4,619 bases of DNA, from the IMG/VR virus record IMGVR_UViG_2526164663_000051; one strand, given 5' to 3'. The position numbers and the translations under genes are program-made. Under the pieces are notes generated by a model that did no database searches, had not been told where the DNA came from, and saw only the letters and a list, made by a program, of their open reading frames with translations. This stretch comes from a virus (Duplodnaviria > Heunggongvirae > Uroviricota > Caudoviricetes). This document shows, piece after piece, positions 596-865 of this stretch. Numbering within the stretch: position 1 is the first letter of the stretch; each line of letters opens with the position of its first letter.

Positions 596-865
596 TTACT
601 TCATCCCGCCAATATTTTCCCACGTCCCGTCAGCACGCAGGATTTGCAGCGGTCTTACCACGCACTGTATCTGCTTTTTATCCGCATCCAGTATCACCAC
701 CTGCGTGATTACCCTGTCCTGCTCCGGGATAATGCCATTCTCATCTGACTCCAGAATGTCTGCCGGTCCCAGTCGCAGCTGTGCTGTAAGCGACTGCCCG
801 TGTTCACAGTCATCATGCTTTCCGCAACCACACAGACGCTCCATAAGCTTTCTCAAAATATTCAT
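596..865 (-). CDS. Hypothetical small protein (89 aa) with N-terminal Cys/His motif, translationally coupled to the tail fiber gene
   Basis: ATG at 865-863 preceded by AGGAGA with a 5-nt spacer (minus strand ...acAGGAGAatgacATG). The start lies 1 nt after the fiber TGA stop (TGAcATG). Stop TAA at 598-596 is followed by the hairpin terminator. Protein MNILRKLMERLCGCGKHDDCEHG... carries C-x-C-x5-C-x-H. I do not recognise a family; it is not lambda Tfa-like. The six-frame track extends the frame to a TTG at 997, but that extension has no RBS and overlaps the fiber 3' end. Confidence 0.5.
   Translation of the reverse strand: MNILRKLMERLCGCGKHDDCEHGQSLTAQLRLGPADILESDENGIIPEQDRVITQVVILDADKKQIQCVVRPLQILRADGTWENIGGMK

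Follow-up and report, generated by a model that had tools for sequence, protein, structure and literature searches.

The gene directly downstream of the collagen-like side tail fiber gene in a 4,619-nucleotide (nt) stretch of caudovirus DNA (IMG/VR record IMGVR_UViG_2526164663_000051; the whole stretch is called the window here) is, by sequence comparison, a free-standing copy of the C-terminal knob of that fiber, the PfC domain (Phage_fiber_C, PF06820), carrying a 27-residue head. This small gene is real, expressed, under selection and functionally tied to fibers that end in PfC. Our favored account of its function, to which we assign a probability of roughly 0.4, is that its product of 89 amino acids (aa) acts as a PfC-trimer accessory that engages the fiber tip transiently, as an assembly aid or a cap. 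The gene, which resides in prophages of enterohemorrhagic Escherichia coli (EHEC), is not new as an entity, and both it and its family are already catalogued and extremely common. The two experimental papers on such fibers pass over this conserved and co-translated partner of the fiber tip. Collagen-like fibers are found on most Shiga-toxin-converting and effector-carrying prophages of EHEC and bear on the spread of toxin genes; the small protein is a testable lead for fiber assembly, virion clumping and host range.

Identity and genetic setting of the small gene

The small gene and the fiber gene preceding it comprise the following features of the window, all on the minus strand.

596..865, minus: small gene, 89 codons plus TAA (ATG at 865-863, TAA at 598-596; from translation)
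599..784, minus: PfC domain (PF06820) of the small protein, residues 28-89 (Pfam, model positions 1-64 of 64)
785..865, minus: N-terminal 27-residue segment, the variable part, a predicted short amphipathic helix (residues 3-11) followed by the Cys/His stretch (AlphaFold2 and polymorphism ratios)
815..832, minus: CGCGKH, residues 12-17, identical in 81 of 81 copies and the one part of the proposed Cys/His motif that never varies
863..869, minus: stop-start junction TGA-C-ATG (fiber stop TGA at 869-867, single C at 866), translational coupling
871..876, minus: Shine-Dalgarno sequence AGGAGA, embedded in the last fiber codons Thr-Gly-Glu, 5 nt before the ATG
552..581, minus: intrinsic terminator hairpin AAAACCGGAG-UCC-GGCUCCGG, then UUUUUGUGU (RNA fold)
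867..2180, minus: collagen-like side tail fiber gene, 437 aa, of EPclA architecture (PfN, Ala/Ser-rich coiled coil, collagen, PfC; PF08400, PF01391, PF06820), with a RefSeq coding sequence of equal length
903..1094, minus: PfC of the fiber itself, residues 363-426 (Pfam, 123 bits, positions 1-64 of 64), paralogue of the small-protein domain
1098..1430, minus: collagen Gly-X-Y triple-helix region, 111 residues (translation; PF01391)

The translation of the small gene begins MNILRKLMERLCGCGKHDDCEHGQSLT. Its PF06820 match scores 123.2 bits over the full length of the model, compared with a gathering threshold of 25. The end of the adjacent fiber matches the same 64-position model; PfC is the C-terminal domain of the collagen-like EHEC prophage fibers EPclA and EPclB (PMC3368898). 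About seventy percent of the small protein is fiber domain, and this part is 34% identical to the PfC of the adjacent fiber (E 1e-10). The family phrog_576, 'tail fiber protein', covers the protein from residue 1 to 89 of 89 (E 1.7e-60) with a profile that starts at the ATG, and RefSeq names the product 'phage tail fiber C-terminal domain-containing protein'. The window copy is a 100% DNA match to an annotated RefSeq coding sequence of E. coli E2865, encoding WP_001023986.1. Scans of the small protein against NCBIfam and PADLOC gave no match, and a defense gene was rejected on the PADLOC result. The initial annotation had called the protein unrecognized, which these assignments do not bear out; it had also overlooked that the beta-rich C-terminal half is a paralogue of the C-terminal domain of the fiber.

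The two PfC copies differ in context. In the fiber, PF06820 forms the C-terminus of a collagen-like polypeptide and is an autonomous trimerizer that nucleates the collagen helix. The small protein is a separate polypeptide with its own Shine-Dalgarno sequence and ATG, in which a helix and CGCGKH take the place of collagen and the PfC domain is more strongly conserved.

The late tail operon ends with the small gene, which lacks its own promoter and lies upstream of the operon terminator. The terminator hairpin, which begins twenty nucleotides past the small-gene stop, folds at -26.1 kcal/mol (z -4.6), and none of 200 shuffles folded as well. A simple rule-based terminator scan did not report the hairpin at 581-552 despite its strong fold; a record of phage 434 (OL657226) carries a terminator annotation for the equivalent hairpin. 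Both the late tail operon and the conserved module described below end at this terminator. On all these points of sequence the initial annotation stands: the 1-nt gap TGAcATG, the AGGAGA ribosome-binding site, the 89-aa length and the hairpin terminator all hold, on the minus strand, and the small gene does occupy the position of lambda tfa in tight coupling to the fiber gene.

Older records (H0003 of VT1-Sakai, ADN68460 of phi24B) annotate the small gene as a 129-aa open reading frame (ORF) that starts inside the fiber gene, in the +1 frame. Equivalents of this overlapping ORF are found at the following positions.

596-997, minus: window
4766-5155: locus L001
2010-2399: locus L087

The length of the phrog_576 profile, the Shine-Dalgarno sequence and a lack of peptides from the overlap frame point to the ATG at 865 as the true start. 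For annotation, the upshot is a start 1 nt past the fiber stop (89 aa) and not the overlapping ORF of 129-135 aa of older records.

Searches of PDB sequences with the small protein, its profile and P0144 returned no relevant structure. P0144, a 565-aa protein retrieved in a search of representative proteins, is a distant collagen-like protein that passes the Pfam threshold for PF06820; in it, four PfC-like modules in tandem (…VVVLxADE…GILRVRQADGTWKEIPAIKG) precede the collagen repeats. PfC modules can therefore sit end to end on one fiber axis. P0144 is also the only sign of a PfC domain well outside the Escherichia prophage pool. An AlphaFold2 monomer of the small protein built from a shallow alignment was poor, with a predicted local distance difference test score (pLDDT) of 48.5. 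Addition of the distant member P0178 and the four P0144 modules gave a pLDDT of 75-78 for the PfC part. The resulting model consists of a six-stranded beta domain and a helix spanning residues 3-11; residues 12-25 fall below pLDDT 50 and are in effect unmodeled.

Linkage to the fiber and selection

Of 5426 complete E. coli genomes, 698 carried the small gene (median 12 copies). It was also present in 296 phage records, all with at least 90% amino-acid identity, and every occurrence showed the conserved arrangement at the fiber end. Beyond E. coli it turned up only in Citrobacter rodentium and E. albertii, and just 84 relatives emerged when 1.84 billion representative proteins were searched with a profile. 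Fiber-type PfC, small-type PfC and a joint 561-nt segment were each found in 296 phage records, with the joint segment covered to at least 80% in 292 of the 296. The small gene is linked essentially 1:1 with collagen fibers ending in PfC, in long-tailed and short-tailed phages alike.

The same 1-nt junction stands behind the EPclA fibers of the long-tailed phages Evi and 434 and behind the EPclB fibers of the short-tailed Sepvirinae TL-2011c, P27 and phi24B. Because the junction, GAATGACATG, was identical in 80 of 80 independent IMG/VR viral contigs and the hairpin was kept in 72 of 79 loci, we do not attribute the arrangement to chance. The Shine-Dalgarno sequence read AGGAGA in 67 and TGGAGA in 9 of the 76 loci tallied with upstream context, and similarity among loci collapsed right after the T-tract. 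The shared junction, hairpin and end of similarity thus define fiber, small gene and terminator as a conserved module that ends the late operon. One curated record of phage 434 labels the small protein 'tail fiber assembly chaperone'; a literature search on locus tags, 2B8 and phage 434 found nothing about it.

Selection was examined in the best 80 of 284 loci by protein similarity, and motif tallies included the window copy as well (n = 81). The ratio of nonsynonymous to synonymous polymorphism (pN/pS; pooled Nei-Gojobori, 60 distinct alleles) was 0.15 for the whole small gene; the PfC part alone gave 0.071 (pS 0.137) and residues 1-27 gave 0.27, with pN somewhat underestimated by the choice of loci. 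The PfC of the fiber itself gave 0.28. The small PfC is under strong purifying selection. An intact 89-codon frame was kept in 80 of 81 copies, with start, Shine-Dalgarno sequence and stop retained.

Variation in the N-terminal segment falls at positions 5, 9, 10, 19, 20 and 22-25, and the variants reassort among fiber types. All copies share C12, C14 and H17. At position 20, Arg (45 copies) is commoner than Cys (35), and one copy has Ser; at position 22, 61 copies carry His and 20 carry Asn. The trend at both positions recurs in cluster representatives. The window copy contains C-G-C-G-K-H-D-D-C-E-H, which had been read initially as a C-x-C-x5-C-x-H metal-binding knuckle. That reading fails on conservation, with all four ligands (C12, C14, C20, H22) present in only 20 of 81 copies; a zinc knuckle was rejected because its third and fourth ligands are not conserved. 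A lipoprotein or Cor-like exclusion protein was also rejected: although 'LCGC' looks like a lipobox, there is no signal peptide, residues 1-11 being charged and amphipathic (mean Kyte-Doolittle value -0.02).

Rare variants also occur. P0121 (92 aa) is a hybrid of the N-terminal half of the small protein and the C-terminal half of the fiber PfC, which implies recombination between the two PfC paralogues. L046 has a premature stop at codon 8 of the small gene. L089, a 725-bp contig of a Xanthomonas pisi assembly (DSM 18956, contig_138), carries the small gene at 97% identity, almost certainly because E. coli or phage DNA contaminated the assembly.

A proposed role at the fiber tip

This fiber type was characterized as EPclA by Ghosh et al. 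in 2012, who found recombinant EPclA to be a trimer (PMC3368898). Isolated PfC (residues 363-426) was likewise a trimer by size-exclusion chromatography with multi-angle light scattering and nucleated refolding of the collagen helix, EPclB expressed alone aggregated, and the small gene is unmentioned (PMC3368898). Since recombinant EPclA and isolated PfC are trimeric alone, fiber trimerization does not need the 89-aa protein. These results contradict an obligate trimerization chaperone, one of the roles first suggested for the small protein.

A 2026 preprint on phi24B, combining cryo-electron microscopy and proteomics, models a 645-aa collagen fiber, gp61 (10.64898/2026.04.10.717836). Its C-terminal domain is not resolved in the model, the small gene is not discussed and no extra protein is modeled on the lateral fibers (10.64898/2026.04.10.717836). 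The pairing of receptors and proteins on these phages is still debated, and the preprint argues that the collagen fiber is not the binder of BamA (10.64898/2026.04.10.717836). The supplementary table for purified phi24B virions contains the small-protein peptides VITQVVILDADKK and ADGTWENIGGMK; 3 spectra were recorded for each small-protein peptide seen, compared with 47-180 for fiber peptides. Of the razor spectra, no more than 11 (six peptides) can be assigned to the small protein, versus 2559 to the fiber, or about 3% per residue, a rough estimate drawn from the peptides listed for a sample stored six months. The small protein is produced but, in these phi24B virions, lies well below stoichiometric amounts, contrary to the stoichiometric partner originally envisaged.

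The small gene is translated by coupling to the fiber gene, and transcription stops at the hairpin that follows it. For its product we propose the following sequence of events. The PfC domain of the small protein, like that of the fiber, is predicted to form a trimer, of about 30 kDa. Inside the infected cell this trimer may engage the distal PfC knob of the fiber as a non-essential maturation aid or transient cap, where it could prevent aggregation of a sticky knob or template the register of the knob while the collagen helix zips from its C-terminus. The small protein would then be largely lost, leaving only traces on purified virions. More speculatively, after exit from the cell the two invariant cysteines of each chain might join the chains in a disulfide knot or create a metal site along the three-fold axis.

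There is precedent for such behavior in Alteromonas phages, whose chaperone 'caps' are conserved yet can be dispensable, attach weakly and are shed from virions (PMC10579305). The caps A5 gp9 and V22 gp27 are likewise small, encoded right after the fiber gene and part of a module shared across tail morphotypes (PMC10579305). They differ in kind from the small protein, which is a paralogue of the terminal knob of the fiber, in that they resemble the intramolecular chaperone domains of K1F and T5, with beta-hairpin 'tentacles'. The other obvious comparison is with Tfa proteins (lambda Tfa, U or TfaMu of Mu, G of P2; Caudo_TAP), which are also products of a gene directly downstream of the side tail fiber gene at the end of the late operon, and some of which remain on the fiber tip. 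The small protein is half the size of Tfa, and its fiber trimerizes without it. Homology to Tfa was rejected, as the initial annotation had anticipated when it saw no resemblance: Pfam, NCBIfam, hhalign and local alignment all came out without similarity, hhalign against Mu U giving a probability of 0.15% and local alignment a z of -0.14. The small protein would thus work like a tail-fiber accessory or cap, yet outside the Tfa family.

Several observations weigh against an accessory or cap. Its assembly or capping function, binding and trimerization included, is something we infer. At E<=1 no Pfam family other than PF06820, and so no Caudo_TAP, matches the small protein, and NCBIfam likewise has no match that would place it with Tfa. 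No fold match to the intramolecular chaperone domains of K1F, T5 or the Alteromonas phages was found; such fold matches as the small protein has are all weak and are to fiber chains rather than chaperones. With recombinant EPclA folding in its absence, any role in assembly can only be auxiliary. N-terminal variants showed no co-variation with fiber type, and hence no sign of co-adaptation. Finally, the low abundance in phi24B is a rough figure from the peptides listed for a sample stored six months.

A more elaborate version of the proposal, which we consider somewhat unlikely, would make the small protein a third kind of tail-fiber maturation factor: a free paralogue of the knob that forms its own trimer, perhaps with a CGC cystine knot or axial metal site, and docks knob-to-knob on nascent collagen-like fibers as template or transient cap. 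Such a factor would be unrelated both to Tfa and to intramolecular chaperone domains and would belong to a module common to Shiga-toxin phages of sipho- and podovirus type. In the complex of Mu, the fold matches of the small protein go to the fiber chain and not to the chaperone chain. The match to the C-terminal tip of the Mu tail fiber S/S' (PDB 5yvq, 8ju3) is without statistical support and serves as a lead only: Foldseek gave E 0.07, hhalign a probability near 0.1%, and against the profile 58 and 105 out of 1000 shuffles equaled or exceeded the real score.

Alternative explanations

If the association with the knob were permanent, the small-protein homotrimer would be stacked on the PfC of the fiber as a stable distal tip subunit or adhesin and would form the true fiber end. 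We regard this as unlikely: with only about 3% of the fiber spectra per residue, the phi24B virions hold too little of it, their authors model nothing additional on the lateral fibers, and the small PfC is, at a pN/pS of 0.07, the most conserved part of the module, unlike receptor-binding tips. Functions unrelated to the fiber, as a metal-binding (zinc-knuckle) protein or a small cargo gene, draw on the four-ligand motif of the window copy, on the invariance of CGCGKH and on the location, the region downstream of these fibers being a known hot spot for cargo and effectors (NleB/NleC/NleH fragments in 434, EspV in Evi). They are improbable given the 20 of 81 copies with a complete ligand set, the fiber domain that makes up most of the protein, the placement upstream of the operon terminator with no promoter of its own, the blank PADLOC and NCBIfam scans and the lack of a signal peptide or lipobox context. 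A functionless remnant of a duplicated or exchanged fiber 3' end, hitch-hiking with the fiber gene, is scarcely credible. The small protein is indeed a paralogue of the adjacent fiber end, and a recombinant hybrid (P0121) and a nonsense copy (L046) exist. A decaying duplicate was nonetheless rejected on its pN/pS (0.07 at pS 0.14), on ORF integrity (80 of 81 frames intact) and on detection of the protein by mass spectrometry, to which the identity of at least 90% in all 296 phage records can be added.

A programmed frameshift would have ribosomes enter the small-gene frame, +1 to the fiber, and produce a minor form of the fiber with tandem PfC-PfC. The small-gene frame is open for 44 codons upstream, to position 997, older records annotate the overlapping 129-aa ORF noted above, and tRNA-Glu could formally re-pair at -2 (GAA to GAG in G-GAG-AA). 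The phi24B authors included fiber-gp59 fusions in their search database and labeled one row 'Spike or just gp59?'. The 88 unique spectra of 'Fusion_6159_FS1' are easily mistaken for evidence of a frameshift fusion. The lone 'unique' fusion peptide behind them is SVVVSGTLK, the N-terminal peptide of the fiber, and a database artifact; its uniqueness arises because SVVVSGTLK is non-tryptic in the other fiber entry, a 649-aa stop-to-stop frame. Among the peptides listed in the phi24B table none derives from the overlap frame or spans the stop, whereas zero-frame C-terminal peptides of the fiber are abundant (97 and 47 spectra). The junction has no canonical slippery heptamer, a proper Shine-Dalgarno sequence and ATG explain expression, and phrog_576 begins at that ATG. 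We consider a frameshift fusion very improbable and rejected it as largely refuted by the SVVVSGTLK artifact and by the lack of junction peptides among those listed. Beyond the transient accessory or cap and the distal tip subunit, the remaining probability is spread over minor rivals and other functions.

Other features of the window

Outside the module, the window holds the following.

2911-4619, minus: J (tail tip attachment) gene, broken into three ORFs by the loss of 1 nt near 3470 and the gain of 1 nt near 3921 in comparison with intact gpJ of E. coli E2865
2245-2844, minus: lom, intact (Ail/Lom outer-membrane beta-barrel, PF06316, E 4e-121), between J and the fiber gene, as in lambda
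1-360, plus: truncated AntA/AntB antirepressor fragment (PF08346), convergent on the fiber-operon terminator and a pseudogene in the matching RefSeq genome
582-1490, plus: spurious ORF
1097-1957, plus: spurious ORF

The AT-rich stretch at 361-550, between the antirepressor fragment and the terminator, contains no recognizable gene. With J interrupted, this prophage copy is probably tail-defective, like VT1-Sakai, in which J is annotated as truncated. The GC-rich region encoding collagen and the Ala/Ser-rich segment yields long out-of-frame and antisense ORFs that are spurious, as in the two window examples above and at 1436-2290 (minus) of L087; one such ORF is annotated in phi24B as the hypothetical protein vb_24B_37c.
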